Positions 793-32,097 are shown, numbered from the stretch's first letter. The stretch: 40,300 bases of DNA from an uncultured Oscillospiraceae bacterium (GCA_900552285.1 URYV01000001.1:1-40300), one strand, 5' to 3'. Translations and numbers: made by a program. Notes: generated by a model from the letters alone, not told the origin.

Positions 793-842
793 ATTTGTCG
801 TCCTTTCATGCCCGCGGTCTTAAAGCGACTCGCGGAAAAATT

Positions 843-879
843 CACAAAAGGGGTTGCCGAAGAAGTTTTCAGCAACCCC
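843..879 (-). terminator. Rho-independent terminator downstream of the E1 gene
   Basis: The stem is GGGGTTGC (850-857) paired with GCAACCCC (872-879), with a 14-nt loop. On the minus strand it is followed by CTTTTGTGAATTTTT. It lies 24 nt after the E1 stop at 903. Confidence 0.6.
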
Positions 880-902
880 GGTTAGGGTCAAAAGACTATT
901 TA

Positions 903-3391: not shown

Positions 3392-4762
3392 TTATTTAAT
3401 TTCAAACAGCGCTTCTCTGATGACCTCGCAGACGGTGGGATGGGGGAATACGATTTCCTTAAGGTTGTCCACGGTGATTTCGGTCTCTATCATCATAGCG
3501 GCGCCGTAAATTATTTCGGCGGCATAGTTTGCGATCATGTGAACGCCGAGAATTCTGCGGTATTTCTTGTCCACAATAACCTTGATTATTCCGTCTCTCT
3601 CCTCGTTCTCGGCGACATAGCGTCCGGAGAACATCATGGGGAGCTTAACGCACTCGACGTCATAGCCCTTGGCCTTGGCCGACTCTTCGGTCTCGCCCAC
3701 CGAGCCAACCTCGGGGTTGGTGTAGATGACCGAGGGAATGGCGTTATAGCGCATACGGTCCTTTTTGCCCAGCATATTGTTAACGGCGACCTCGCCCTCG
3801 CGATAGGCGGTGTGGGCAAGCATGATCTTGCCGTTGACGTCGCCGCAGGCATAAAGGCCGGCGATGTTGGTTTTCATGCACTCGTCGGTTTTAATGGCAC
3901 CGCGCTCAAGCTCGACATTAAGGGTCTCAAGTCCGTAGCCGGCGGTCACTGCGCGGCGGCCGATGGAGCAGAGCACCTTGTCGGCGGGAACCGAAGCCTC
4001 TTTACCGTTTTCGGTAAAGGTGACCTTTCCGTCGCCGACGGCGGTGACGGCGCAGCCGAGTTTAAATTCAACGCCTCTCTTGGCGTAGGTCTTTTTAAGA
4101 ATTTCGGAAATGTCGCGGTCGGTGTTGCCGGCGATGTGGTCGAGCATTTCAACAACCGTAACGTGGCTTCCCACCGAGCTGAAGTAGGCGGCCATTTCAA
4201 GGCCGATAACTCCGCCGCCGATAACTACGAGGTTTGCGGGGATCTCTTCAAGGTCGAGAATTTCGCGGTTGGTCATGACAAAGCCGTCGGAAAGACCTTC
4301 GCGAAGTCCGGGAATGGGGGGAACGACGGGAGCCGAACCGGTGGCAACAAGCAGCTTGTCGGAAATATAGGTCTCGCCCTCAGCCTCAAGCTTAAAGCCC
4401 TCGGCGTCGCGGCCGAGAATTTTGCCCTCGGCGTAGACGACCTTAACGCCCAGCTTTTTCATCTGTGCACCGATGCCCGAAACAAGGGTCTTTACAACCT
4501 TGTTTTTGCGCTCGATAACCTTTTTCTGGTCGATGGCGGCGCCGGTGGCGGTAACGCCGTAGTGGTCGCCGTTTACGACATAGTTGTAAACCTTGCCCGA
4601 ATAAAGGAGGGACTTGGAGGGAACGCAGCCTTCGTTAAGGCAAACGCCGCCCAGAGCTCTCTTTTCGATTACAAGGGTTTTAAGTCCGCCGGCAGCGGCC
4701 TTCTCTGCGGCATTGTATCCGCCGGGGCCTCCGCCGAGAACGATAAGATCATATTTTTCCAT
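3392..4762 (-). CDS. lpdA: Dihydrolipoyl dehydrogenase (E3)
   Basis: This is a 456-aa ORF with the GGGPGG FAD-binding motif, the redox-active disulfide motif CLNEGCVPSK, a second NAD dinucleotide fold (VVIGGGVIGLE) and a C-terminal dimerisation HPT motif. Confidence 0.93.
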   Translation of the reverse strand: MEKYDLIVLGGGPGGYNAAEKAAAGGLKTLVIEKRALGGVCLNEGCVPSKSLLYSGKVYNYVVNGDHYGVTATGAAIDQKKVIERKNKVVKTLVSGIGAQMKKLGVKVVYAEGKILGRDAEGFKLEAEGETYISDKLLVATGSAPVVPPIPGLREGLSDGFVMTNREILDLEEIPANLVVIGGGVIGLEMAAYFSSVGSHVTVVEMLDHIAGNTDRDISEILKKTYAKRGVEFKLGCAVTAVGDGKVTFTENGKEASVPADKVLCSIGRRAVTAGYGLETLNVELERGAIKTDECMKTNIAGLYACGDVNGKIMLAHTAYREGEVAVNNMLGKKDRMRYNAIPSVIYTNPEVGSVGETEESAKAKGYDVECVKLPMMFSGRYVAENEERDGIIKVIVDKKYRRILGVHMIANYAAEIIYGAAMMIETEITVDNLKEIVFPHPTVCEVIREALFEIK

Positions 4763-4774
4763 TTTAAATCCTCC

Positions 4775-6103
4775 TTATTTGGAAAGCAGGAGAGAGAAAT
4801 TCTCAAGTGCGTTTCTCAGGTCGACGAGGAATCTGGAAGCGGGGCTTCCGTCAAGAGCGCGGTGATCGTAGGTCAGAGACAGTCCCATGGCGGGATAGGT
4901 CTTGATTTCGCCGTTTACCTCGCGGATGCGGGTGGTGATGGTGTCAACACCGAGAATACCGGTTTGGGGAGTGTTGATAACGGGGGTGAAGCTCTCGATA
5001 CCGTAGGAGCCGACATTGGAGACGGTGAAGGATGCACCGGACAGCATGTCGGGGGTTGCTCCGCCGTTCTTGCAGGTTGTGGCAAGCTCCTTGGCCTTGG
5101 CCGAGATTTCGTTAAGGCTCATATTCTGAGCATTCTTAATGGTGGGAACCACAAGTCCTCTGTCGGTGTCCACGGCAACGCCCAGGTGAACGCCGTTAAA
5201 ATATCTCATGGTGTCGCCGTTAAGCAGATGAGCGTTGAGAGCCTTGTGCTCGGGCTTTGCAAGCACTCTCGATACGGCAAAGAGAATGATGTCGTTGAGG
5301 GTGATGTTGGCAAGACCGAGTTTCTCGCCGCTTTCCTTGACCTTCTTGCGGAACGCCATGATTTCGGTGGCGTCGAAGGAGGTGGTGTGGGTGAGCTGAG
5401 CGGCGGTGGAGAGAGAAGCCACCATCTGCTTTGCAATGACCTTGCGGATGTTGGGCATCTTCTCGTCGACATATTCGGGACCTGCCTCGGCGGGAGCGGC
5501 GGTTGCTGCGGGAGCTGCGCCGATGTCCGCAACCGAGAACTTTCCGCCGAGCCCCGTGCCTGCTGCACCGGCAAATTCGCCTGCGGCGGCATAGGTGGCG
5601 GTGGGTCCGTTTTCTATAAGGGTGCGCACGTCGCGCTCGATTATGCGGCCGTTGGGGCCGGTGGGAGCGGCAAAGTGAGGATCAATGCCGGTCTTTTCGG
5701 CAAGAGCCTTTGCGCGGGGAGAAATTTTGATGAATTCGCCAGCCTGAGCGGGAGCGGCTGCGGTGGGAACGGCGGGAGCCGCTGCGGGAGCTGCTGCGGG
5801 TGCGGCTGCGGGAGCCTCTTCGGCGTCGCCGTCAAGCTTTGGTGCAAACTCGGCGGTGCTTTCTCCCTCTTTACCTATGACGCAAACGTTGGTCATGGTA
5901 GGAATATCGTCATCCTCTTTAAAGAACTGTTCAAGCATGATTCCGTCAACCGGAGACTCTTCTTCAAGGGTCGATTTGTCGGTTTCATAGGTGAAAAGAA
6001 CGTCGCCTTTTTTTACAGCGTCGCCCTTTTTCTTGTGCCACTCGGTAAGAATACAGCTTTCGACCGAAATACCTACGTTGGGCATCATTACGGGTGTTGC
6101 CAT
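4775..6103 (-). CDS. Dihydrolipoamide acyltransferase (E2) with lipoyl domain, E3-binding domain and catalytic domain
   Basis: This is a 442-aa ORF. It has the lipoyl-lysine motif ETDKS near the N-terminus, an Ala/Pro-rich linker (APAAAPAAAPAAAPA), a PSBD-like segment (ISPRAKALAEKTGID) and the catalytic DHRALDG motif. Confidence 0.92.
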   Translation of the reverse strand: MATPVMMPNVGISVESCILTEWHKKKGDAVKKGDVLFTYETDKSTLEEESPVDGIMLEQFFKEDDDIPTMTNVCVIGKEGESTAEFAPKLDGDAEEAPAAAPAAAPAAAPAVPTAAAPAQAGEFIKISPRAKALAEKTGIDPHFAAPTGPNGRIIERDVRTLIENGPTATYAAAGEFAGAAGTGLGGKFSVADIGAAPAATAAPAEAGPEYVDEKMPNIRKVIAKQMVASLSTAAQLTHTTSFDATEIMAFRKKVKESGEKLGLANITLNDIILFAVSRVLAKPEHKALNAHLLNGDTMRYFNGVHLGVAVDTDRGLVVPTIKNAQNMSLNEISAKAKELATTCKNGGATPDMLSGASFTVSNVGSYGIESFTPVINTPQTGILGVDTITTRIREVNGEIKTYPAMGLSLTYDHRALDGSPASRFLVDLRNALENFSLLLSK

Positions 6104-6145
6104 TTATATTTCCTCCTAAAAAAGATTTTTGATTTTATATTAAAG

Positions 6146-6907
6146 TCATTCGTAAATGACCTTAACCTGCGCTTGTTCGGCAAGCTCCGTTATGTCGTCG
6201 GGGGGGCGCCTGTCGGTTATGAGAATGTCCACGTTTTCCATGTGGGCGAAGGTGAAGGGCATACTCTTTCCGAATTTGGAATTGTCGATAAGCATGATGC
6301 GCTTGTCGGCCTTGGCCATTATGCCGTTTTTGAGAACCCCTTCTTCATAATTTCCCACCGTGAAGCCGTTTTTGGCCGAAAAGGCCGAGCCGACGATGAG
6401 AGCCGTGTCGATGTTAAGGGAATTGATTATCTGGCTCGACTGATTTCCCGAGGCGGCCAGATTGTTGCGGTTTATAAGACCTCCGAGAATGGTGACCGAC
6501 GGCTTATACCGCTTGGACAGCTCCATGGCCACGTTTATACCCGAGGTAGCCACCGAAAAATTAAGGTCGGGAAGATTTCTCGCAAGAAACATTCCTGTCG
6601 AGCCGGCGTCGATAAAGACCGAGCGGCGAGGCTCGATAAATTTCAGGGCGAGATTTGCGATTTTCGTTTTGGCGTCCTGATTTTTGGTGGCGCGAAGGGC
6701 ATAAACGTCCTCCTGCTCGCCGATGGTTCGGATGTAGCGGGCGCCGCCGCGAATTCTCACGGCCTCACCCAGATTTTCGAAATATTCAAGGTCTCTTCGC
6801 AGGGTCATACTTGAAACTTCGGGAAAAAGCTTTTCCAGCTCCTTGAGCATGACGGTTCCGTTTTCGCGGAGCAGCGTCAAAACCTTTTCCCTGCGGGCAA
6901 TGCTCAT
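6146..6907 (-). CDS. DeoR/GlpR-family transcriptional regulator
   Basis: This is a 253-aa ORF with an N-terminal DeoR HTH (REKVLTLLRENGTVMLKELEKLFPEVSSMTLRRDLEYFE) and a C-terminal sugar-phosphate-sensor-like domain. It is the first gene of the E2-E3-E1 operon. Confidence 0.88.
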   Translation of the reverse strand: MSIARREKVLTLLRENGTVMLKELEKLFPEVSSMTLRRDLEYFENLGEAVRIRGGARYIRTIGEQEDVYALRATKNQDAKTKIANLALKFIEPRRSVFIDAGSTGMFLARNLPDLNFSVATSGINVAMELSKRYKPSVTILGGLINRNNLAASGNQSSQIINSLNIDTALIVGSAFSAKNGFTVGNYEEGVLKNGIMAKADKRIMLIDNSKFGKSMPFTFAHMENVDILITDRRPPDDITELAEQAQVKVIYE

Positions 6908-22717: not shown

Positions 22718-22812
22718 AAAAATAAAAAGTTTATTTTTTGTATCAAGTCGAGTATATTAAAAAGTATTGTCGCTTTTCCGCGAAATAAAGCGAAAAATAA
22801 CCAAAACATTAA

Positions 22813-22844
22813 AACAGAGTACAGAATTTGTTCTGTACTCTGTT
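22813..22844. repeat. Perfect 14-bp inverted repeat (AACAGAGTACAGAA-TTTG-TTCTGTACTCTGTT). It is either a terminator for the TetR gene or an operator upstream of putP.
   Basis: I read it directly from the sequence. It is followed by short CTGTA/GTAT direct repeats that run into the putP -35 region. Confidence 0.6.
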
Positions 22845-22849
22845 CTGTA

Positions 22850-22878
22850 TTGTATTCTGTGTTTCCGTATGGTATACT
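22850..22878 (+). promoter_or_regulatory. Sigma-A-type promoter with extended -10 for putP
   Basis: The promoter reads TTGTAT (22850-22855), a 17-nt spacer, then TGgTATACT (-10 at 22873-22878). It lies about 30-40 nt upstream of the putP start, which is preceded by the RBS AAGGAGAG. Confidence 0.5.
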
Positions 22879-22907
22879 TTGCCCGTTAACAAAAATTTAA
22901 GGAGAGT

Positions 22908-24470
22908 GTGACGGAAATGTTCACAACAAACGACTGGATAGTGCTGATCACCATACTGGCCTATATGGCGATTATGATAGCCATCGGTTTCGCGGTCAGC
23001 AAGAAAAACAAAACCTCCTCCGACTTCTTCCTCGGCGGACGTCAGCTCGGCCCCCTTGTGACGGCCATGAGCGCCGAAGCCTCCGACATGAGCGGCTGGC
23101 TGCTTATGGGAATGCCCGGCCTTGCCCTTATGACCGGCGTGCCCGAGGCCTTTTGGACGGCGGTGGGTCTTGCAATAGGAACCTATCTCAACTGGCTTTT
23201 CGTGGCCAAAAGACTTCGCGTTTACAGCCACCGCATCGACGCCTTCACCATTCCCGATTTCTTTGCCCGCCGTTTCGGCGACGGTAAAAAGGTGCTGACC
23301 TGCATTTCTGCGCTGATGATAGTGGTTTTCTTCATTCCCTACACCGCGTCGGGATTTTGCGCCTGCGGAAAACTCTTTTCCTCCCTTTTCGGAATGGATT
23401 ACATGACCGCCATGATAATAAGCGCCGCGGTTATCATTCTTTACTGCACGCTGGGCGGATTTTTCGCCGCCTCCTTCACCGATTTTGTACAGAGCATAAT
23501 CATGACGGTTGCCCTGCTTATCGTGCTCGGCCTCGGAGAGGGTCTCATCGGCGGGTTCGACAAGGTTTTCGCCAACGTTTCCGAGCTTTCGGGCTATCTC
23601 AATGTTTTTGAGGGCTACGACGTGGCCAAGGGCGTGACCGGAAATTACAATGCCCTGACGGTTGCCTCCACCCTTGCCTGGGGACTCGGTTATTTCGGAA
23701 TGCCCCACATTCTTCTCCGCTTTATGGCAATCGGAGACGAGAAAAAGCTTAAGCTTTCCCGCCGCGTCGCCTCGGTTTGGGTGACCATTGCCATGGGAGT
23801 TGCCATTCTTATCGGAATTATCGGATTTTCTCTCATGAAAAACGGAATCGTGCCAAGCTATGCCGACAATGCCGCCGCCGAAAGCGTCATTGTGGACATC
23901 GCCAAATTCCTGAGTAAATACGGCTATGTTGCGGCCTTTGCGGGCGGAATAGTCCTTGCGGGTATTCTCGCCTCCACCATGTCCACCGCCGATTCCCAAC
24001 TCCTTGCCGCCGCCTCGAGCATTTCCGAAAACCTTGTTCAGGAAAGCTTCGGCGTCAAGCTGTCGGTTAAAAAGTCCATGCTGCTTGCGCGAATTTCGGT
24101 TGTGGTCATTTCGATAATCGCCATCTTCCTTGCGAGAAATCCCGACAGCTCGGTTTTCCGTATCGTTTCCTTTGCGTGGGCGGGCTTCGGAGCCGCCTTC
24201 GGCCCGGTGGTGCTCTGCGCCCTCTTCTGGAGACGCGCCAACAAATACGGAGCCGTCGCCGGAATGGTTTCGGGAGGAGCCATGGTCTTTATCTGGAAAT
24301 TCCTCGTCCGTCCCGCCTTTGCCGGCACAATTCTCGACATATACGAGCTGCTGCCCGCCTTCCTTCTCAACCTTGCCGTGATTATCGTCGTCAGCCTGCT
24401 GACCAAGGCTCCCGACAAGGAGCTTACCGACAAGTTCGACGAAATAAAGGCCGAGTGCAAAAGCATATAA
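22908..24470 (+). CDS. putP: Sodium:proline symporter (SSF family)
   Basis: This is a 520-aa polytopic ORF with the PutP-type N-terminus FFLGGRQLGPLVTAMSAEASDMSGWLLMGMPGLA. The true start may be the ATG at 22917 rather than the GTG at 22908. Confidence 0.9.
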   Translation: MTEMFTTNDWIVLITILAYMAIMIAIGFAVSKKNKTSSDFFLGGRQLGPLVTAMSAEASDMSGWLLMGMPGLALMTGVPEAFWTAVGLAIGTYLNWLFVAKRLRVYSHRIDAFTIPDFFARRFGDGKKVLTCISALMIVVFFIPYTASGFCACGKLFSSLFGMDYMTAMIISAAVIILYCTLGGFFAASFTDFVQSIIMTVALLIVLGLGEGLIGGFDKVFANVSELSGYLNVFEGYDVAKGVTGNYNALTVASTLAWGLGYFGMPHILLRFMAIGDEKKLKLSRRVASVWVTIAMGVAILIGIIGFSLMKNGIVPSYADNAAAESVIVDIAKFLSKYGYVAAFAGGIVLAGILASTMSTADSQLLAAASSISENLVQESFGVKLSVKKSMLLARISVVVISIIAIFLARNPDSSVFRIVSFAWAGFGAAFGPVVLCALFWRRANKYGAVAGMVSGGAMVFIWKFLVRPAFAGTILDIYELLPAFLLNLAVIIVVSLLTKAPDKELTDKFDEIKAECKSI

Positions 24471-24483
24471 ACAAATCAAAGCA

Positions 24484-24517
24484 AAATCCCCGTTCCGTGT
24501 ATTCGGAGCGGGGATTT
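24484..24517. terminator. Bidirectional hairpin terminator between the convergent putP gene and the phage-derived module
   Basis: AAATCCCCGTTCCG (24484-24497) pairs with CGGAGCGGGGATTT (24504-24517). That gives 14 bp including one G-U pair, with a 6-nt loop. There are A/T runs on both sides. Confidence 0.6.
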
Positions 24518-24535
24518 CGTTATGGAGGCGAAAAT

Positions 24536-24958
24536 TTATTTTTTGAAATCTTTTTTTATGTCTATATAGGCGTTGAGCACAAAGGCGCCTTCGTCCCGTT
24601 CATATTGAACCGTGCCGCAGCCCGACCCCGCAAAGGCGAATTCGTCCGACAGCGACTCGACATAGTTTGAAATACGCATGAACATTTTATAGCACTCGAT
24701 GCCGTTTGAGGTTTCGGGCACGAAAATGTCAAGGGAAAGCCGCGCCGAAAATTGCCGATTGTAAAGAAGGGTTGAGGGTTCGGTGTCGGAATATATCTCC
24801 TTTACCTGCTCATAGGCGTCTTTAATGCCTATGGCGACATATTCCCCCGTGAGGGGGGCGGGCTTGACCTCTCCCGTAAAACCGCAAATAAAGTTGATGT
24901 CGGAAAGGTTTTCCTTGGCTTCCAGCTTTGTTTTTGTGTTGAGAATGATGTTGCTCAG
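24536..24958 (-). CDS. Putative head-tail joining / tail-completion-like protein (about 140 aa) with no canonical start codon
   Basis: The track reports only 24536-24721 (GTG start, 61 aa). The same frame stays open and coding-like up to 24958: LSNIILNTKTKLEAKENLSDINFICGFTGEVKPAPLTGEYVAIGIKDAYEQVKEIYSDTEPSTLLYNRQFSARLSLDIFV.... That stretch contains no in-frame ATG, GTG or TTG. A CTG at 24958 lies 1 nt after the upstream stop. Gene position and size fit a neck protein. Confidence 0.5.
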   Translation of the reverse strand: MSNIILNTKTKLEAKENLSDINFICGFTGEVKPAPLTGEYVAIGIKDAYEQVKEIYSDTEPSTLLYNRQFSARLSLDIFVPETSNGIECYKMFMRISNYVESLSDEFAFAGSGCGTVQYERDEGAFVLNAYIDIKKDFKK

Positions 24959-24959
24959 A

Positions 24960-25325
24960 CTAACCGTTTTGCCCGGCCTCCTCTCCTATAACCGTCCGAA
25001 TGACCGCCCAGTTGTAAAAGGGCTTGTCCCCGTTCCACACCGTTTCGGCCTTGACGATGTAATATTTGTCGGTTCCGCATTTTATTCGTGAGTCCGCCGA
25101 AATATCCGTAAGACTCACCTCGCAGGGGCCGATATAGAGAAAATGAGATTGGTCGATACGGCCTATTTTGGAGCGTATGCCCATAAGATACATCTTGTTT
25201 TTATACCGCAGAGGCTGTATAAAGGCGCGGTAGGGAGCCGAGTAGGTTTTGCCGTCTGCCGACAGCGTCACCGTGCGGCCGTAATTTGCAATGTATTTTG
25301 AAAGGGCTTTGGCGGGATTTTTCAT
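24960..25325 (-). CDS. Phage head-closure / head-tail adaptor protein (SPP1 gp16-like pattern)
   Basis: This is a 121-aa protein from the ATG at 25325, preceded by GGAGGAG and overlapping the upstream stop as ATGA. Its sequence (TVTLSADGKTYSAPYRAFIQPLRYK...YYIVKAETVWNGDKPFYNWAVIR) fits the head-tail joining family pattern. I rejected the Arg-rich extension to 25496 shown in the track. Confidence 0.6.
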   Translation of the reverse strand: MKNPAKALSKYIANYGRTVTLSADGKTYSAPYRAFIQPLRYKNKMYLMGIRSKIGRIDQSHFLYIGPCEVSLTDISADSRIKCGTDKYYIVKAETVWNGDKPFYNWAVIRTVIGEEAGQNG

Positions 25326-25696
25326 TGCTCCTCCTCCGTTTTGGCAAAATAGAAGTTTCGGTCGCAAAGCAGCGGGCTGATTTCGGCAAAGGCCGAATTT
25401 TTGAGCTGAGTCGCCGCTGTTATTTTTTCGGCGGCCGATTGTTTTACCGTAACGTCGCCGGCCGAGAAATCGGTGTCGCCCTCGGTTGCGGCGCACACCA
25501 AAACATAGTTAAGAAAGGCGTCGGCGGCCGCGGCCGAACAAAGTGCAACGCGGTTCTTTTCGCAAAGCGCCTCGGGCTTTACCTTTTTTGAAAGGTCCTC
25601 GCAGTCCGCGTCGCAAAGGGTATACCACCCCACCGCCTCGTCACGGGGAAGCCCCGTGAGAGTGCGGAAGGTCTCAAAAATCAGCAGTATATCCAT
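25322..25696 (-). CDS. Phage head-tail connector (gp6/gp15-like) protein
   Basis: This is a 124-aa acidic helical protein encoded immediately after the capsid gene, the conserved position for this function. Its ATG lies 1 nt after the capsid gene stop. Confidence 0.55.
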   Translation of the reverse strand: MDILLIFETFRTLTGLPRDEAVGWYTLCDADCEDLSKKVKPEALCEKNRVALCSAAAADAFLNYVLVCAATEGDTDFSAGDVTVKQSAAEKITAATQLKNSAFAEISPLLCDRNFYFAKTEEEQ

Positions 25697-25697
25697 A

Positions 25698-26705
25698 TTA
25701 AGCGCCCGTGTTCTGGGTGACGGTGAAGTTAAGGGTCTTTACGGCGTCGCCGATGATTTTGGAGAAGCCGGAAATGGTGGTGATGGCGGTGCGCTCCAGC
25801 TGCTTGTCGATAAGACGGTCGCTGTCGACGGCGATGTCCTGTGCAACCACCATTTCGAGAGCATAGTTTTTGTCAAAGCCCACGGCCAGCTTCTGCTGAT
25901 CCTTTGCGATGATGATGTCAAATCCGAGACCCGTCTTAAAGCCGTCGGGAGAGCCTATCTTCATGCCGAAATCGGAATTGGAGAAATAGGTGTTGGACAT
26001 CATTTTGGTGATGTTGTCGGGGCTGACGATGAGGGTGTTGAGCTCATAGGGGAGAAGAGCCTGCCAAAGCTTCATGACGTCGGGAAGACCGAACTTGTCC
26101 TTGTCGGCGGGGTCGGAGGCGGCGGCGCCGGTGGTCAGAGCGGTGATTGCGTCGTTGAACTGCTGCTTTGCGATGTGGGCGCCGATCTGCTTTAATGTGA
26201 CGGTGAAAAGGTCAAGGCGCTGGAATTTAAGAGCCTCGTAGGAGGCGGTGAGCATACGTCCGTGCTTTTTAAGCTCCACAAGGGAGGAGCTGACCGAAAC
26301 GTTGGTCTCGGGAATGGCGGCGCCTTCGGCGACCTCCTTAAGCTCAAGAGCCGAGTCGGCGGGGTTGCTGACAATGCTGCGATAGTCCATGCCGTTTATG
26401 TGGGTGGTGGCGGCGACTATCTTGCTGAGCAGGTTTTTCTCCTGCATACCCGTCTTGACCGAACGGCAGAGATATTCGGGGAAAAGTGCGGCTGCCGACG
26501 AGGAGGAGTAGAATTTTTCCACCGTGTCGGAGCAGGGCCCCGCCACCTTGATGTCAAAACGCTTGAGCTGGCGCTGGAAGGCGTCCAGTCCCTCAAGGTC
26601 GGTGCCTTTATAGTTTTCCGAGGGGTCGATGGATTCCAGGGCGGCGGTAATTCCGCCTCTGACGTTGTACATTCCTTTTTCGAGAGTGATATTTTCGTAT
26701 GACAT
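25698..26705 (-). CDS. Phage major capsid protein (HK97-fold)
   Basis: This is a 335-aa ORF located after the protease/scaffold gene. Its composition and length are typical of HK97-fold capsid proteins that lack a delta domain. An RBS (AAGGA) lies 9 nt upstream. Confidence 0.8.
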   Translation of the reverse strand: MSYENITLEKGMYNVRGGITAALESIDPSENYKGTDLEGLDAFQRQLKRFDIKVAGPCSDTVEKFYSSSSAAALFPEYLCRSVKTGMQEKNLLSKIVAATTHINGMDYRSIVSNPADSALELKEVAEGAAIPETNVSVSSSLVELKKHGRMLTASYEALKFQRLDLFTVTLKQIGAHIAKQQFNDAITALTTGAAASDPADKDKFGLPDVMKLWQALLPYELNTLIVSPDNITKMMSNTYFSNSDFGMKIGSPDGFKTGLGFDIIIAKDQQKLAVGFDKNYALEMVVAQDIAVDSDRLIDKQLERTAITTISGFSKIIGDAVKTLNFTVTQNTGA

Positions 26706-26723
26706 AATTTTTTGTCCTTTCTT

Positions 26724-27071
26724 TTATATAATAAATTTGTCGTTTTGGGGCTTTTCGCGGTTGCTTTGGGGATTTACCTGGCGGGGAAGGGGATAATCCT
26801 TGCCGATTTCGTCCTCAAAAAGCTTTTTAAGGGTGAAAAGCTTTTCGGGCTCGAGATTTTCGCAGAATTTCTCAAAGTTTTTGGCTCCGATGTCGGGGTT
26901 TGTGATACCGCCGAGACGGGAAACCTCCTTTCTGAGATTTTCCAGCTGGCATTTGCCGAAGGAGGCAAGCTTTTTAAGCTCGGAAAGTTCTTCTCGAAAC
27001 AGTTTGCATTGCTCTTCGGTAAAGGTGACCGAACCCTTTTTAAGTTCCTTTTCGATTTGGTCGAAATTCAT
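26724..27071 (-). CDS. Possible nested in-frame scaffold protein (115 aa) translated from an internal start within the protease gene
   Basis: An in-frame ATG at 27071 (Met216) is preceded by a strong SD, AAGGAAGGGAGGTGAACAA-ATG. The arrangement is analogous to lambda C/Nu3 and P2 gpO. Confidence 0.4.
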   Translation of the reverse strand: MNFDQIEKELKKGSVTFTEEQCKLFREELSELKKLASFGKCQLENLRKEVSRLGGITNPDIGAKNFEKFCENLEPEKLFTLKKLFEDEIGKDYPLPRQVNPQSNREKPQNDKFII

Positions 27072-27716
27072 TTGTTCACCTCCCTTCCTTTGGGAAAAGC
27101 CCTTTGTGACGCCGGCCTTTGGCTGCGCCGGGACGGCCACAAAGCTCCATTCATAGGCATCGGTGGGCTGCTCGAGATTGTAATAGCAAAGTGTCCTGTC
27201 CGCCCCCGAGCCGTAAAAACGGCCCTTTCTGTGGCTGCATGGGCTTTCCCGCTGATCCTTGCCGCACACCGAGCAAACCGCCTTTGCGACGGCACATCCC
27301 ACGCTGACCTCTTTTTTGATTCCGGCGTCGATTTCGGCAATCATGTCGGCGTTTTTCGCGGTGTTCGGCATATAGGCTCTGGCCTTTAAACGGCAGTAGC
27401 GCTCTCCTGTTTTGGTCTGCTGTCCGTCGGGATATTCCACCTGCGTATCGAAGATACGGGCGACCTGATCCCGTCCCTTGCACGAATGGTCGAATATTCC
27501 TGTTTTTCCGATATAGAGAGCGGCAAGAGTCTTAAGAGACTGCTCGCTGAACCGTTCAAAGTCCCTGTCCACGTCGTTGTCGCAAAGCACCACCGAGAAA
27601 ACAAATACCTCGTCGGCTTTGAGTATTCTGCGGGAGAGCCGATTTATCTTTTCAAGCTCGGCCTCGGTGGGCGCCCCGCTTTTTTCGGTTATAAAACCTT
27701 CCTTCAAAAAAATCAT
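26724..27716 (-). CDS. Prohead serine protease fused to a C-terminal coiled-coil scaffold-like domain
   Basis: This is a 330-aa ORF. The HK97-type protease features are GIFDHS (His), KKEVSVGC (Ser) and YEWSFVAVPAQP. The C-terminal 115 aa are charged and helical (ELKKGSVTFTEEQCKLFREELSELKKLASF...). Its ATG overlaps the portal stop as ATGA. Confidence 0.75.
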   Translation of the reverse strand: MIFLKEGFITEKSGAPTEAELEKINRLSRRILKADEVFVFSVVLCDNDVDRDFERFSEQSLKTLAALYIGKTGIFDHSCKGRDQVARIFDTQVEYPDGQQTKTGERYCRLKARAYMPNTAKNADMIAEIDAGIKKEVSVGCAVAKAVCSVCGKDQRESPCSHRKGRFYGSGADRTLCYYNLEQPTDAYEWSFVAVPAQPKAGVTKGFSQRKGGEQMNFDQIEKELKKGSVTFTEEQCKLFREELSELKKLASFGKCQLENLRKEVSRLGGITNPDIGAKNFEKFCENLEPEKLFTLKKLFEDEIGKDYPLPRQVNPQSNREKPQNDKFII

Positions 27717-28879
27717 CCTTTCTCGTTTTCGATTTTATGTCTGATTTGCTCGGCCTGCATACGGTAAAGCTCGGCCTTGGCAAGCTCGACCTCGTCCTTG
27801 AGCGAAATGTCCTCGAAATCGATTTTGACGCCTGTGTCAAAGCCGCCGAGGGCAAGCCACATTCGGCATATCTTTTCGATTGCCGGGGTGATTATGCGGC
27901 GGTATCCCCAAATCTCGCTTGTCAGCATATCCGACTGCTCCGAGGACATTCGTTCGGTGGAGCTCCACGAAAGCCCCAGCATAAAGGGCGGAATTCCCAG
28001 TCTCGAAACTATCTGCTCGGTCATCTGCCGCGCGGGAATTTCACAGTCGAGGGTTTTTGCGTCGGCGCCGATGACCTTGATGTCCACATCGCCCACCGCC
28101 ACAAAATCGCTGACCCGTCCGTCCTTGTTTTCCCGCATGGCCTTGCTCCAGGCGTCGGCCATCTGTTTGGCTCTGTCCTTCGCAAAGGCCTTGTCCGACG
28201 GGTCGGAGGAGGGCTTGTAGGTCACGGCAAACCGCAGGTTTCCCATGCGTTCGAAATTGACCTTCTCGGTTTCATAGATTTTGGTAAGCACACCCGCCAC
28301 AAAGGGAAGGCTGCGAAGCAGGGAATTCCCGCAAAGCTCGCCGGCCTTGGGACCGAGTACGCTGACGGTGAAAAGCTCGGGATATTTCACCTTTTTGAAT
28401 TCGGTGCCGCAGAGCGCCGCAATGTCGACTCCGCCGCCCTTTTTTCTCAAAAGCTCGATGCTTTGAAGGGGGCAGCAATAAAGAGCCGCCACCGTGTCAA
28501 AATCGGCCGAGGGCACGATTTCGGCCACCGCCGTGCCGTACATGAGAAGTCCGTCGAGATATTGGGCGATAAAGGCTTCTATACCGTTCATGCAGTCGCC
28601 CACGGGCACTCGGGACAGAAAATCCTCAAGTCCCTCCTGCGCCCGCTCGTCGGCACAGGTCACCTTAAGTCCCCCCGACAGGCTCACGAGCTTTGACAGC
28701 GCCGCGTCGACAATGGGTATGCCCTCGCGAACCGAGTCGTAAAGTCCGAATTCCGGCTTGCCCAGCGGCACATATCGGTCAAAGGCCGAAAAACAGCAGC
28801 CCGATTTCGCCACGGCCGGCACAAAGGCGGGAATTTCTTCCTTTTGAGACCGTGCCTTAAAAAAATCAAATGGTTTCAT
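27713..28879 (-). CDS. Phage portal protein
   Basis: This is a protein of about 388 aa encoded directly after the large terminase. Its size and order are typical of HK97-family portals. I prefer the ATG at 28879, which has AAGGAG 6 nt upstream, over the TTG at 28882. Confidence 0.8.
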   Translation of the reverse strand: MKPFDFFKARSQKEEIPAFVPAVAKSGCCFSAFDRYVPLGKPEFGLYDSVREGIPIVDAALSKLVSLSGGLKVTCADERAQEGLEDFLSRVPVGDCMNGIEAFIAQYLDGLLMYGTAVAEIVPSADFDTVAALYCCPLQSIELLRKKGGGVDIAALCGTEFKKVKYPELFTVSVLGPKAGELCGNSLLRSLPFVAGVLTKIYETEKVNFERMGNLRFAVTYKPSSDPSDKAFAKDRAKQMADAWSKAMRENKDGRVSDFVAVGDVDIKVIGADAKTLDCEIPARQMTEQIVSRLGIPPFMLGLSWSSTERMSSEQSDMLTSEIWGYRRIITPAIEKICRMWLALGGFDTGVKIDFEDISLKDEVELAKAELYRMQAEQIRHKIENEKG

Positions 28880-28930
28880 CAAATTCTCCTTTTCTTAATT
28901 TTTGTATGTAAAATGAAGCTTCATGTTTGA

Positions 28931-30178
28931 CTATCTGTCCACCGAAATAACGGCAAAGCAGTCCTCCTCTTTTGAAAGCACGGTGGAAACAAAATACCGT
29001 ATGTCGTCCATGGCGTGGTCGTTTTCCTTGACGGGACAGTCCTTAACGCTGTTTTCGTCCCAGCGGTAGAGAGAAAATTCCCTGAATGTGTCGGCGCAGC
29101 TCTTTGAAAAGGACAGCCGCCCCTCTCTGAGCGCTTCGGCCACAAGGTTTATGCCCTCTCTCACCGAGTTTTTTGCCGGAATGACATTGAATTTTCCGTG
29201 ACGGCGTATGCAGGTCATGAATGAGGCGGCCGACGGGTCGCAAATAACGGCCGAAATGTTTCTGCCCTTCGCAAGCCTTTCCAGCTCGGCATAATATTCC
29301 TCGTCGGTTTTTTGCTCGCCTCTTTGCTTTCCCGAATAGTAATATTCGGCCATGCGGTGGGCCTTTTTGCCCTTTACCCCCCAAAGCCCCATGGACATGG
29401 GATTAAGGGTGCCGTAGTCGCAGGAAATGTAGTATTCGTCAAAGCGGTCCTCGGTCTCCCGCGCAAATTTTTCTTCCGAAAACATGGGATAAACAAGCCC
29501 GTCGGCCGCCACCCAAAGGCCCTTAACGAATCGGTCGTAAAAAGCCCCCGAATAGAGCGTTTCGTATCTCTTTCGAATGTCTTCCGAAAGTGCGGGATTG
29601 TCATCCATGGTGAAATGAAGATACAGGGCGTTTTTTTGCTCGGCCTTTAATATCCATTCCCGATAAAACCAATGCCGCGGGTGCTCGGGATTGCAGTTGA
29701 ACCAAAATTTCGAGCCGCTCACCGAGCATCTTGCCACCGTCTGCTCCACAAAGGAGCGGGGCATGAGGGCAACCTCGTCAAGCAGCGCTCCCGAAAGGGT
29801 CATGCCCTGAATAAGCGCCGCCGAGGACTCGTCCCGCCCTCCGAAAAAGTAAAATCGGTTGAACCGCGCCCCCTTTGACACGATCATGTGGTTTTGAGAG
29901 GCCTTGATTTCACAGTGAAAGCCCAGCTCCCCAAGCTGTTCGCACAGCGGAACGATTATGTTGCGCTTGAGGGCGGTCACCGTTTTGCCGCAAAGGGCAA
30001 AGGAGGCGCCGCTGAAGGCCGAAAAGGCCCAAAGCACAAAGGAAATGGACATACAAAGCGTCTTTCCCGACCGCACGGCGCCGTCGCAAATACAGGCGTC
30101 GCGGTCTTTATAGGGGCTCTGCTCGGTCCACCAGCAAAGCAGCTCAAGCTGTTTTCTCGAAAAGGGCTTAAAGTTCAT
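28931..30178 (-). CDS. terL: Terminase large subunit (PBSX/Terminase_3-like)
   Basis: This is a 415-aa ORF with Walker A DGAVRSGKT, Walker-B-like LLDEV and a C-terminal nuclease domain (HAMDDIRY). It overlaps the terS stop by 11 nt. Confidence 0.88.
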   Translation of the reverse strand: MNFKPFSRKQLELLCWWTEQSPYKDRDACICDGAVRSGKTLCMSISFVLWAFSAFSGASFALCGKTVTALKRNIIVPLCEQLGELGFHCEIKASQNHMIVSKGARFNRFYFFGGRDESSAALIQGMTLSGALLDEVALMPRSFVEQTVARCSVSGSKFWFNCNPEHPRHWFYREWILKAEQKNALYLHFTMDDNPALSEDIRKRYETLYSGAFYDRFVKGLWVAADGLVYPMFSEEKFARETEDRFDEYYISCDYGTLNPMSMGLWGVKGKKAHRMAEYYYSGKQRGEQKTDEEYYAELERLAKGRNISAVICDPSAASFMTCIRRHGKFNVIPAKNSVREGINLVAEALREGRLSFSKSCADTFREFSLYRWDENSVKDCPVKENDHAMDDIRYFVSTVLSKEEDCFAVISVDR

Positions 30179-30644
30179 CGCGTTCTCCCTCTTTCAGGGC
30201 TTCGGCTCCCTTTTTGAGAGCCTCGTAAAAGGGCGGGAGGACAGCGGATTCTGAACTTTGTTCCAGCTGTGAAAGCTTTTCGAGAGCCTTGAGACGGTCG
30301 AAAAATTTAATTTCCATGCCGCCTCCCTTTTGCCGCTTTATTTCGGATATTCCGAAAAGGTCGAGTCCTTCGATTTCCCGGTCGGTAATGCTGTCGGCGA
30401 GCATAAGCTTCACTGCGTCGGCAATCGAGCCGAAAGCTATGCGCCTCAGACCGGCTTTAAAATCGTCTTTTTCCGAAAAGCGTTTCTCTCTTATCTGTCT
30501 GATGCGGCTTTGTATTTCCTCCGATTCAAGCAGCGCCAAGGCCTTCTTTTCGGGGAAGAGCTTATACCCCGCCCGAAAGGCGGCCTCCCTCGGATTTGCC
30601 GTCTGACAAAAAAGCTCACAGAATTCTTTTTCTTTCGGTTTCAT
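30168..30644 (-). CDS. terS: Terminase small subunit
   Basis: This is a 158-aa protein from the ATG at 30644, which has AGGAGG 8 nt upstream. The N-terminal HTH-like segment KEKEFCELFCQTANPREAAFRAGY is typical of P27-family small terminases. Confidence 0.75.
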   Translation of the reverse strand: MKPKEKEFCELFCQTANPREAAFRAGYKLFPEKKALALLESEEIQSRIRQIREKRFSEKDDFKAGLRRIAFGSIADAVKLMLADSITDREIEGLDLFGISEIKRQKGGGMEIKFFDRLKALEKLSQLEQSSESAVLPPFYEALKKGAEALKEGERDEL

Positions 30645-30858
30645 ATCGCTGTCCTCCTTGAGCACCTGTTACATATGCAAGCCGTCGTGCGGCTTACAAT
30701 AACGGTCCCGAAAAGGGCCGTCGGTTGCATAAAACCATGCAACAAAGTAATAAAAAAATATTTTTTTCATAAAAATTAAAAAAAGCCCCGATAAGGGAGA
30801 GCCTTTCGCAGGTCTTGCGAAAAGCAGCCCTTCGGGGGAGGAAATAAGGAGGAAGAAG

Positions 30859-32097
30859 ATGAAAAAAACAAGGGTCTTTGCCGCCGTTTTGCTTGCCCTT
30901 TTGCTTGTTCAAACGGGGGTCTGCGCCGATGAAAACGCTTTCGCAGGGGAGCCGAGGGTGGTCACCGAATATATGAACGATACCCTCTATGAAAGCTTTG
31001 AGGAGCCGCCCGTGCTTCCCGCCTCGGGAAATGTCATGCCCGACATTCCGGCCTCGTCGGCGCTGCTTTGCGAGGTGTCAACCGGCACGGTGCTTTTTGA
31101 AAAGGACGCCGACAGTCGCCGCCCGCCCGCCTCCATAACCAAAATAATGACCATGCTGCTGACGGTGGAGGCCGTCGAGTCGGGAAAAATATCCTTTAAT
31201 GACACCGTCACCGCCTCAAAACACGCCTGCTCCATGGGCGGCTCTCAGATATGGCTTGAGGAAGGGGAGACCATGGTGCTTTCCGACCTTTTGAAGGCGG
31301 TGGCCGTGGGTTCTGCCAACGACGCGGCGGTCGCCGTTGCCGAGCACATCGCAGGCAGCGAGGAGGCCTTTGCCGTTCTCATGAACAAGCGGGCGGCAGA
31401 GCTCGGCATGAAGGATACCCATTTTGTCAACGCAAGCGGCCTTGACGCCGACGGCCACATTAGCACGGCGGCCGACGTGGCAAAAATGGCCTGCGAGCTT
31501 TTAAAGCACGATGTCATAAAAAATTACACCACAATTTGGACCGACACCCTTCGAAACGGCAAAACGCAGCTTGTCAACACCAACAAGCTCATAAGATTTT
31601 ACGAGGGAGCCACCGGCCTCAAAACCGGAACCACCGACAAGGCGGGCTACTGCGTTACCGCCTCGGCAAAAAAGAACGGCACCGAGCTTGTGGCGGTTAT
31701 TCTCGACGGCCAGACAAGCGATTTGCGATTCACCGCCGCAAAGGCGCTGCTCAATTACGGCTTTGCGAATTTTGAGACCGCCTTTCCCCAAATCGGGGAG
31801 GAGGCGCTGCTTGAGGTGCCGGTAAGGGGCGGGCAAAAGTCCTATGTTAAGCTCGAGGGGGCAAAAAATAACCGCCTGCTGACCGAAAAGGGCAGAGGCG
31901 GCGATATTGAGGTAAAAATAGAGCTTGAACCGTCCGTCGACGCTCCCGTCGCAAAGGGTCGGATATTGGGACACGCGGTATTTTCCCTTGACGGCGAGAC
32001 GCTTATGACAAAAGAGCTTTATGCCTGCGAGGAGGTAAAGCAAAAGACCTTCGGCTTTTCCCTCGGGGCCTTCGGACGGCGCTTTTTCGCCATTTAG
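30859..32097 (+). CDS. D-alanyl-D-alanine carboxypeptidase (S11, PBP5/DacB/DacF-like)
   Basis: This is a 412-aa ORF with a signal peptide, the SxxK motif ASITKIM, an SxN-type motif (GSAND), KTGTT and a C-terminal PBP5 beta-sandwich domain. An RBS (AAGGAGG) is present. Confidence 0.9.
   Translation: MKKTRVFAAVLLALLLVQTGVCADENAFAGEPRVVTEYMNDTLYESFEEPPVLPASGNVMPDIPASSALLCEVSTGTVLFEKDADSRRPPASITKIMTMLLTVEAVESGKISFNDTVTASKHACSMGGSQIWLEEGETMVLSDLLKAVAVGSANDAAVAVAEHIAGSEEAFAVLMNKRAAELGMKDTHFVNASGLDADGHISTAADVAKMACELLKHDVIKNYTTIWTDTLRNGKTQLVNTNKLIRFYEGATGLKTGTTDKAGYCVTASAKKNGTELVAVILDGQTSDLRFTAAKALLNYGFANFETAFPQIGEEALLEVPVRGGQKSYVKLEGAKNNRLLTEKGRGGDIEVKIELEPSVDAPVAKGRILGHAVFSLDGETLMTKELYACEEVKQKTFGFSLGAFGRRFFAI

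Follow-up and report, generated by a model that had tools for sequence, protein, structure and literature searches.

How does a set of phage head-assembly and DNA-packaging genes, with no tail, lysis, integration or replication gene beside it, come to lie among housekeeping genes of a gut bacterium, and what could it do there? The question is raised by a 6.1-kb locus in a 40,300-nt stretch of DNA (hereafter the window; one strand, 5′ to 3′) from an uncultured Oscillospiraceae bacterium (GCA_900552285.1 URYV01000001.1:1-40300), in which eight co-directional open reading frames (ORFs) of the minus strand are tightly packed at positions 24536–30644. With moderate confidence, and on the grounds of sequence comparison, it is interpreted here as a head-and-packaging locus of phage origin, of the gene transfer agent (GTA) or viriform kind, that has been domesticated and is passed on vertically in an uncultured, spore-forming gut member of Oscillospirales. 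The genomic features of GTAs and viriforms were found in it: it is a structural cluster derived from a phage, it lacks genes for replication and integration, and it is transmitted vertically and kept under purifying selection.

Gene content of the head-and-packaging module

ORF calls, together with Pfam, PHROGs and structure matches, confirmed the eight co-directional head and packaging genes that a preliminary description, made from the sequence of the window, had proposed. The module is bounded by putP (22908–24470, plus strand) and the DD-carboxypeptidase gene dac (30859–32097, plus strand), and comprises the following features, listed from the 5′ end of the operon:

30645–30858, minus strand: upstream intergenic and regulatory region between the divergent dac and terS, partly AT-rich, with a GGAGG Shine–Dalgarno sequence before the terS ATG (read from the sequence)
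30724–30743, no strand assigned: perfect palindrome GTTGCAT-N6-ATGCAAC, a candidate operator or possibly a packaging signal
30168–30644, minus strand: TerS (g1), small terminase subunit, 158 amino acids (aa) from ATG (PF03592, phrog_51)
28931–30178, minus strand: TerL, large terminase, 415 aa (PF03237, PF04466 and PF17289; phrog_2)
27713–28879, minus strand: portal protein, 388 aa from ATG (phrog_30703)
26724–27716, minus strand: g4, prohead protease/scaffold-like fusion, 330 aa (phrog_16951; BFVD structure matches)
25698–26705, minus strand: major capsid protein (MCP), HK97-type, 335 aa (PF25209; phrog_3922)
25322–25696, minus strand: g6, small protein of 124 aa, presumed head–tail adaptor by position only
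24960–25325, minus strand: g7, small protein of 121 aa, presumed head-closure or stopper protein by position only
24536–24967, minus strand: g8, lambda gpU-like tail terminator, about 142–143 codons (AlphaFold2 model and Foldseek)
24475–24518, minus strand: intrinsic terminator hairpin with U-run, common to the convergent g8 and putP (RNA fold)

The identities of TerS, TerL, portal and MCP were borne out by Pfam and PHROG profile searches. TerS matched PF03592 (E 5e-14) over profile positions 2–127 of 141 and retained the N-terminal region of this Terminase_2 profile; its ORF stays open upstream to the GTG at 30665, at which the preliminary description had started the gene, and the start is most likely the ATG at 30644, which has a good Shine–Dalgarno sequence and gives a protein of 158 aa. 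TerL matched phrog_2 (E 4e-51), and Walker A (GAVRSGKT), Walker B (LLDE) and nuclease acidic motifs were read in its translation. The portal matched phrog_30703 (E 1.5e-125) and, under its curated cut-off, PF04860; an exact look-up of the portal from the TTG start returned nothing, gene callers starting it at the ATG one codon downstream. MCP matched PF25209 (E 8e-15) and phrog_3922 (E 8e-67). Profile searches of PDB sequences with MCP, g4, g6, g7 and g8 gave nothing meaningful, and the RecA matches of the MCP profile in that search were rejected as spurious, having no matched stretch. The overlaps reported beforehand were found as an 11-nt overlap of terS and terL and as ATGA at portal/g4 and at g6/g7, and the hairpin past g8, next to putP, folds as a terminator (ΔG −26.4 kcal/mol; z −4.85 against shuffles), as had been proposed.

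The g4 protein had been called a protease–scaffold fusion, and this label is upheld as reasonable because of its structure matches. It belongs to phrog_16951 (E 2e-102), a PHROG without functional annotation, has no Pfam match, and represents a family that forms at least 7,986 clusters at the 90%-identity level; none of them has a Pfam domain, and the named members are called hypothetical. In an alignment of 42 sequences, His77, Ser138 and a Cys/His cluster were invariant. The AlphaFold model (predicted local distance difference test score, pLDDT, 84) displayed a globular N-domain (residues 10–195) and long C-terminal helices (218–307); against PDB there was no match by profile search and no significant Foldseek match, and against the viral predicted structures of BFVD the matches were 'prohead serine protease', XkdF and 'capsid maturation protease' (best E 2e-21). 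From the model, g4 can reasonably be regarded as an XkdF-like prohead protease fused to a scaffold-like C-terminus.

For the two following ORFs, named connector and head-closure protein in the preliminary description, the presence of the genes was confirmed and the names, which no family match accompanies, are presumed from position only; g6 was conserved across the module family, and a Pfam scan of about 40 g6/g7 homologues gave scattered chance-level matches only. The last gene, described as neck-like, could be refined: the AlphaFold2 model of g8 (pLDDT 84; predicted template modelling score 0.75) matched lambda gpU (E 1e-6), the T1 terminator, the pyocin R2 collar, the monocin cap, the SaPI1 neck and structure 6tba of the Rhodobacter capsulatus GTA (RcGTA) in a Foldseek search of PDB, together with a weak match of the protein to PF23961, so that by its predicted structure g8 is a lambda-gpU-type tail terminator.

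Purifying selection and vertical inheritance

The within-species set consisted of the window and 10 conspecific contigs (11 genomes), and the gene order around MCP was identical in all 10 contigs listed. No stops, frameshifts or indels were found in the module in the 11 genomes, which contained 79 synonymous and 24 non-synonymous segregating codons in the module (8 and 6, respectively, in g7) and 199 and 53 in the flanks. The putP–dac interval of a relative, whose comparison had been proposed beforehand, was that of a sister species (L015; MCP 90% identical), and it held the same module between clpC–rny–dac and putP–tetR, as in the window. Between the two species, the ratio of non-synonymous to synonymous substitution rates (dN/dS) ranged from 0.07 to 0.23 at dS 0.8–1.4 over all eight genes (terS 0.23, terL 0.13, portal 0.105, g4 0.23, MCP 0.07, g6 0.13 and g8 0.22), with 0.04–0.135 at dS 0.57–1.13 for the flanking dac, rny, clpC and putP. 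Because the dN/dS and dS values stand alongside those of the flanks, the module has diverged together with the chromosome under constraint. Its fastest-evolving genes were g6, g7 and g8 (60–76% identity to the sister species versus 90% for MCP).

The start of g8 requires separate description. Its start codon (24965–24967, minus strand) was ACG in all 11 genomes of the species, and all relatives examined had a canonical start (mostly ATG; GTG or TTG in two), usually behind a Shine–Dalgarno sequence (GGAGG). The statement that seven of the eight ORFs look intact thus held for the seven, and the eighth was likewise a full-length open frame with only the ATG→ACG change: it aligned end to end with homologues of 143–146 aa, and gene callers annotate only a 49-aa fragment of it because of the ACG start. 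Within the species, g8 had 11 synonymous and 4 non-synonymous segregating codons and 0 stops; g8 is probably still translated, perhaps weakly or via coupling to g7.

A recently inactivated, functionless prophage remnant preserved by chance, one of the options left by the preliminary description, would agree with a phage-derived locus that lacks most phage functions and has lost the canonical start codon of g8. This is very improbable, being contradicted by the selection analysis: (i) dN/dS stays at 0.07–0.23 in all eight genes at near-saturated dS; (ii) no stop or indel occurs in 11 genomes; (iii) synteny crosses species, and the unit is conserved across species differing by up to about 40–50% in MCP, in differing contexts; and (iv) even the ACG-start g8 keeps its excess of synonymous over non-synonymous segregating codons. 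Neither relaxed selection nor disabling mutations were observed, the sole lesion being the ATG→ACG change in an ORF that is still constrained. By these measures the module is under purifying selection and is not a decaying remnant.

The same data bear on a capsid repurposed for a non-genetic role, either as an encapsulin-like compartment or as a decoy against the packaging of infecting phages. A module fixed and conserved like a host gene would be expected of such a device, and phage packaging is indeed disturbed by satellites and by certain defence islands. The idea is hardly credible in view of the purifying selection on both terminase subunits and the portal and of the readable ATPase and nuclease motifs of TerL: active DNA packaging is indicated because the terminases and portal are under selection and the TerL motifs are conserved. 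In addition, no cargo or defence genes adjoin the module.

Chromosomal surroundings

Every substantial non-module ORF of the window was of ordinary cellular type. The left flank encoded a 2-oxoacid dehydrogenase complex, DeoR, HtrA, a two-component system, MetA, MprF-like/GT, Alr, GH2, SpoU, YitT, ComM, SpoIIR, TetR and PutP, and the right flank encoded Dac, RNase Y, ClpC, McsB, McsA, CtsR and UDP-glucose dehydrogenase; between dac and putP only structural and packaging ORFs were present. Family scans of the whole window thus agreed with the earlier statement that the flanks are devoid of phage functions: no integrase/recombinase, repressor, replication, tail, baseplate, holin, endolysin or HNH gene was found in the 40.3 kb, which also contained no tRNA and no Rfam match. 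The check for att-like sites gave no direct repeats bracketing the module in the window.

The module was compositionally indistinct from its neighbours, as had been judged by eye from codon usage. There was no step in GC content at the module, the GC content at third codon positions was 0.653 in the module versus 0.662 in the flanks, and relative synonymous codon usage correlated at r = 0.95 between module and flanks (0.90 between the two flank halves).

A conserved module family with two architectures

An MCP-profile scan was applied to one genome per GTDB species; at least 584 species carried an MCP relative, and the best 80 of these were examined for module architecture. Judged by record titles, all of the best 80 were Clostridia (Ruminococcus, Acutalibacteraceae, Ca. 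Fimenecus, Flavonifractor and Acetanaerobacterium). IMG/VR contained 559 further MCP relatives, mostly in predicted 'proviruses' of 10–13 kb. The option of a domesticated or undescribed variant, raised in the preliminary description, was thereby developed into a large, conserved Oscillospirales family distinct from the GTA of Faecalibacterium prausnitzii (FpGTA; see below).

Gene-order analysis revealed a g1–g8 core common to two architectures: (i) type A, head-only as in the window, with at least 5.5 kb of downstream sequence and no recognisable baseplate gene (24 of the 80 loci), and (ii) type B, in which the core is followed by a protein of about 130 aa, a LysM protein, a hub, a gp25-like protein, Baseplate_J and a gpI/Mu-gp48-like protein (34 of the 80). 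Type-B homologues of g7 and g8 were recovered by hhalign at 99.9% and 98.6% probability, respectively. In type-B loci no sheath or tape-measure gene was recognised, and the protein of about 130 aa gave only chance-level Pfam matches and nothing meaningful against PDB sequences. On gene order, the unit from TerS to the tail terminator is a conserved module, of which the window holds the bare form.

In many type-A loci, host genes of the opposite strand begin directly past g8, and the chromosomal context varies by lineage: the S10 ribosomal operon plus alr (L013), dac plus nrdR (L011), or a MarR–ABC transporter operon plus a 492-aa gene (Ca. Fimenecus). At least 10 species of Ca. Fimenecus had orthologous flanks at 56–97% identity and MCPs at 78–95% identity; read from this synteny, the vertical pattern of the window is repeated in an independent lineage.

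Several variants were seen beside these architectures. Type B, about 11–12 kb overall, has the form of a myovirus-style baseplate that is unusually compact and lacks a long tail, as exemplified by L048 11000–16300 in Ruminococcus sp. JL13D9 (NZ_CP162392.1), with similar arrangements in about 70 other loci. Cultured carriers of type B are Ruminococcus sp. JL13D9 and JE7B6 and Acetanaerobacterium elongatum CGMCC 1.5012. The g8 homologue of L061 (7909–8754), L066, L055, L076, L086, L090 and L169 is about 280 aa, twice the usual length, with an extra C-terminal domain. In L086, L090 and L169–L173, several co-directional ORFs of 180–630 aa, matching neither the baseplate set nor obvious host genes, lie past the g8 homologue. 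An extra gene of about 111 aa (phrog_4588, 'virion structural protein') lies between g4 and MCP in L017, L024, L025, L030, L054 and most type-B loci, and is absent from the window and most of its clade (L011–L016 and L018–L021). Two candidates for accessory genes were rejected: the genes upstream of a type-B locus, considered as a mobile-element early region, belonged to the terminal part of a neighbouring prophage (BppU, CHAP endolysin and Dam) or were unrelated, and included no integrase or replication module, and the small divergent gene 5′ of many type-A loci, considered as a regulator, was in L095 a MarR gene with two co-directional ABC-transporter genes, resembling a host operon.

Comparison with known systems

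FpGTA, the one GTA-like element demonstrated by experiment in these bacteria, is encoded at two loci about 125 kb apart, one for the head and one for baseplate and lysis; its particles, about 40 nm across and without visible tails by electron microscopy, contain host DNA of about 8.5 kb (Borodovich et al., Nat Commun 2026, PMC12946183). The module resembles it in being a phage-derived cluster of a gut bacterium, with no integration or replication genes and with the head locus apart from tail functions. Locus I of FpGTA is 10.5 kb with ten ORFs (TerS, TerL, portal, scaffold, MCP and hypothetical proteins), and the annotations in the proteomics table place its MCP in the N4-gp56 family and give its operon a Prp-type protease (PMC12946183); the module in contrast is 6.1 kb with eight ORFs and has a PF25209/phrog_3922 MCP and an XkdF-like protease–scaffold, as compared by annotation only. 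Because of the N4-gp56 MCP and Prp-type protease of FpGTA, the module is assigned to a different lineage; the best 80 GTDB matches include no locus of Faecalibacterium. The two systems also differ in that FpGTA has a second locus and the module is known here as a single one. In the same study, which used long-read sequencing of gut virus-like particles, GTA-like packaging of 4–10-kb host fragments was common in gut Ruminococcaceae/Oscillospiraceae; it was seen in CAG-115, Onthomonas, Gemmiger and Ruminococcus_C callidus as well as in further uncultured Oscillospirales. Only one of four metagenome-assembled genomes examined yielded a candidate GTA cluster, and the sole responsible cluster identified is that of Faecalibacterium (PMC12946183). 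The module family is a concrete, widespread and strongly conserved candidate for this 4–10-kb gut packaging, from a structural lineage other than FpGTA; it comes in head-only and head-plus-baseplate forms with a recognisable regulatory signature, and bears on which genes make the particles, whether these need tails, how their production is controlled and how genes flow in major gut commensals.

Phage-inducible chromosomal islands that form capsids (cf-PICIs), of which the preliminary description had considered the module a possible member, are mobile islands of 10–18 kb with an integrase, regulation (alpA or other), replication (pri-rep) and, in those described, HNH genes (Alqurainy et al. 2022/2023; He et al. 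2025). Each has genes of its own for capsid, protease, portal, adaptor/connector, TerS and TerL, and lacks tail and lysis genes; the divergence of their adaptors and connectors tracks tail specificity. The module contains this packaging set minus HNH, with the adaptor/connector assigned by position only. It differs from cf-PICIs, and was removed from the class, on four counts: (i) it lacks integrase, att repeats, regulation, replication and HNH; (ii) it is 6.1 kb in size; (iii) it is fixed at one site in all 10 conspecific contigs and the sister species, whereas cf-PICIs are mobile and strain-variable; and (iv) it additionally encodes a tail terminator. Judged by gene content, the module may work partly like a cf-PICI but is not one.

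An immobilised, cf-PICI-like satellite has accordingly to be weighed, that is, a helper-dependent element that, upon growth of a resident or infecting phage, would make its own small capsids, initiate packaging at a pac site in or close to terS and release tail-less heads that join helper tails, staying chromosomally fixed and transducing the adjacent chromosome much as in lateral transduction. Its gene content would be the cf-PICI packaging module without HNH, tail and lysis genes; the release of DNA-filled capsids without tails, to which phage tails are joined afterwards, has been shown for cf-PICIs (bioRxiv 10.1101/2025.02.11.637232); the N-terminal part of the Terminase_2 profile is retained in TerS; and g6–g8 evolve fastest, as would be expected from the cf-PICI link between adaptor/connector divergence and tail specificity. 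The satellite is nonetheless unlikely, given the missing integrase, replication and regulation genes and att repeats, the maintenance of the same site through speciation with host-like dS, a tail terminator of its own, which is a part that long-tailed phages supply with the tail, and the type-B sister loci that carry their own baseplate.

RcGTA shares with the module a vertically inherited, head-first structural cluster under purifying selection with accessory functions at other loci, and the gpU-like fold of g8 also matches its virion structure (6tba). Its main cluster differs by also encoding tube, tape measure and baseplate, its alphaproteobacterial hosts are of an unrelated phylum, and only folds are shared. 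PBSX, a defective prophage of Bacillus (xkd genes), is approached by the XkdF-like g4 and by the type-B relatives, whose LysM protein, hub, gp25-like protein, Baseplate_J and gpI-like protein form an XkdP/Q/S/T/U-like set. A single PBSX cluster of about 28 kb includes sheath, tube, tape measure, lysis and regulatory genes, none of which is present in the module.

A further possibility is a tail-less DNA-export device, in which capsids are the final product and protect chromosomal fragments released on lysis (e.g., in sporulation or stationary phase) for uptake by natural competence or for some other population-level role; no known system works in this way. In its favour are the head-only architecture, conserved in many species with a boundary exactly past g8, and the FpGTA particles without visible tails by electron microscopy (PMC12946183). 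Such a device is improbable, since the maintenance of a gpU-type terminator under selection argues for docking. Signs of competence are moreover limited to one homologue of ComM, a widespread protein.

Upstream palindrome and its possible roles

The palindrome of the window, GTTGCATGGTTTTATGCAAC (30724–30743), lies 78 nt upstream of the terS ATG and is the sole such site in the window. Of 91 related loci of types A and B, 24 had the family motif GTTGC-N10-GCAAC upstream of terS (0.06 expected from shuffles), and the loci bearing it have TerS identities down to about 31%. In 2.33 Mb of related-locus DNA, 30 sites occurred versus about 2.2 by chance, with about 25 directly upstream of terS. In the three closest lineages, the palindrome is followed after exactly 22 nt by TATTGTAAG. 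No second site was found within ±10 kb of any related locus; in a scan of IMG/VR for GTTGCAT-N6-ATGCAAC, made in search of a co-regulated second locus, chance matches dominated and only 1 of 120 was a module. A simple scan of the upstream region gave no sigma-70 consensus promoter.

Because the stem sequence is conserved and no T-run lies behind it in the lineage of the window, the palindrome appears to be a protein-binding site and not a mere terminator. No regulator gene adjoins it; it is read as an operator for an unlinked regulator, and it may possibly be a packaging site. LexA, Spo0A, CtsR and CIRCE boxes were tried as identities and none fits (by eye, against their consensus sequences). 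The Ca. Fimenecus lineage (L043; also L028, L033, L061 and L066) had no GTTGCA palindrome; it had two or three direct repeats TTGTGAAC/TTGTTAAC with an 11-bp period, followed by the conserved ACTATATATGGAGGG, about 130 nt upstream of terS in L043. On the other strand these repeats read TTCACA/TTAACA, which is reminiscent of Firmicute PhoP boxes.

As the N-terminal region of the TerS profile is kept, packaging may start at a defined site, and the small size of the module means that a first headful could include the module itself. These two points lead to a reading as a minimal autonomous 'capsid replicator-by-recombination', in which TerS would recognise a 5′ site (the palindrome being the candidate), a small capsid would pack the 6.1-kb module with some flank, and tail-less or borrowed-tail particles would reach relatives, where homologous recombination across the flanks would rescue the DNA. 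Taken as a whole, this chain of steps has a low probability; if true, it would constitute a new class between GTA and satellite, without integrase or replicon, and directional transfer of the adjacent chromosome would be a further effect.

Proposed mode of action of the GTA-like locus

Under the preferred interpretation as a domesticated GTA/viriform-like locus, the operon would be switched on, probably by a trans-acting factor binding GTTGCA-N8-TGCAAC upstream of terS; the protease–scaffold fusion and MCP would assemble procapsids on the portal, which the fused protease would mature; TerS and TerL would fill them with DNA; g6 and g7 would close the portal; and a ring of gpU-like g8 would form the docking face of the neck. 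Excision, replication, cell lysis and tail building are beyond the locus itself, so that release and delivery would rely on genes elsewhere or on tails of co-resident phages. Delivery would thus proceed through a second locus (as for RcGTA and FpGTA) or through such tails, and particles would otherwise stay tail-less. The retained terminator g8 implies a neck built to dock onto something, and its partner could be a baseplate or tail encoded elsewhere, as type B and FpGTA suggest, or borrowed phage tails, as for cf-PICIs.

Six points weigh against this interpretation: (i) capsid production, host-DNA content and delivery are predicted from genes alone; (ii) the absence of tail and lysis genes applies to the 40.3-kb window; (iii) g6 and g7 have no Pfam, PHROG or PDB-profile match and are functionally unassigned; (iv) the ACG start may mean that g8 is made at a low level or not at all; (v) packaging may be pac-initiated and site-specific, not random, unlike that by the TerS of RcGTA, which has no DNA-binding domain; and (vi) phage-database scaffolds with relatives of the module, derived from virus-like particles (VLPs), could be contamination.

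Records in phage and sequence databases

Among 50,697 GenBank phage records, MCP and portal matched only five unverified 'Bacteriophage sp.' faecal scaffolds, apart from an additional match of the portal to one cyanophage (28% identical); megablast of the module against the GenBank phages gave no match. The five scaffolds presumably come from VLP preparations. The longest of them, MT835508.1 (L095; 46.7 kb, 'UNVERIFIED: Bacteriophage sp.'), is a piece of bacterial chromosome with a type-A module, encoding NrdD, a fucosidase, MarR–ABC transporters, oleate hydratase, SecY, Adk and RpoA, and represents either contamination of a VLP preparation or packaged host DNA. Full-text literature searches found no paper describing the module family.

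A protein identical to MCP was indexed in 327 blocks of a metagenome and assembly collection, Hadza gut samples included. The exact MCP is deposited in GenBank as DAE61937.1 'capsid protein [Caudoviricetes sp.]', and a near-identical TerL from the same 90%-identity cluster as DAE61938.1 'large terminase [Caudoviricetes sp.]'; a chromosomally fixed locus is thus catalogued as a virus in GenBank.

Three long antisense ORFs were also present in the window: 22809–24479 (minus strand, 556 aa) opposite putP, and 3440–6814 (plus strand, 1124 aa) and 795–3362 (plus strand, 855 aa; no family match on scan) opposite the dehydrogenase genes. Each lies opposite a gene with strong Pfam matches, and all three look like 'shadow' ORFs arising as composition artefacts.

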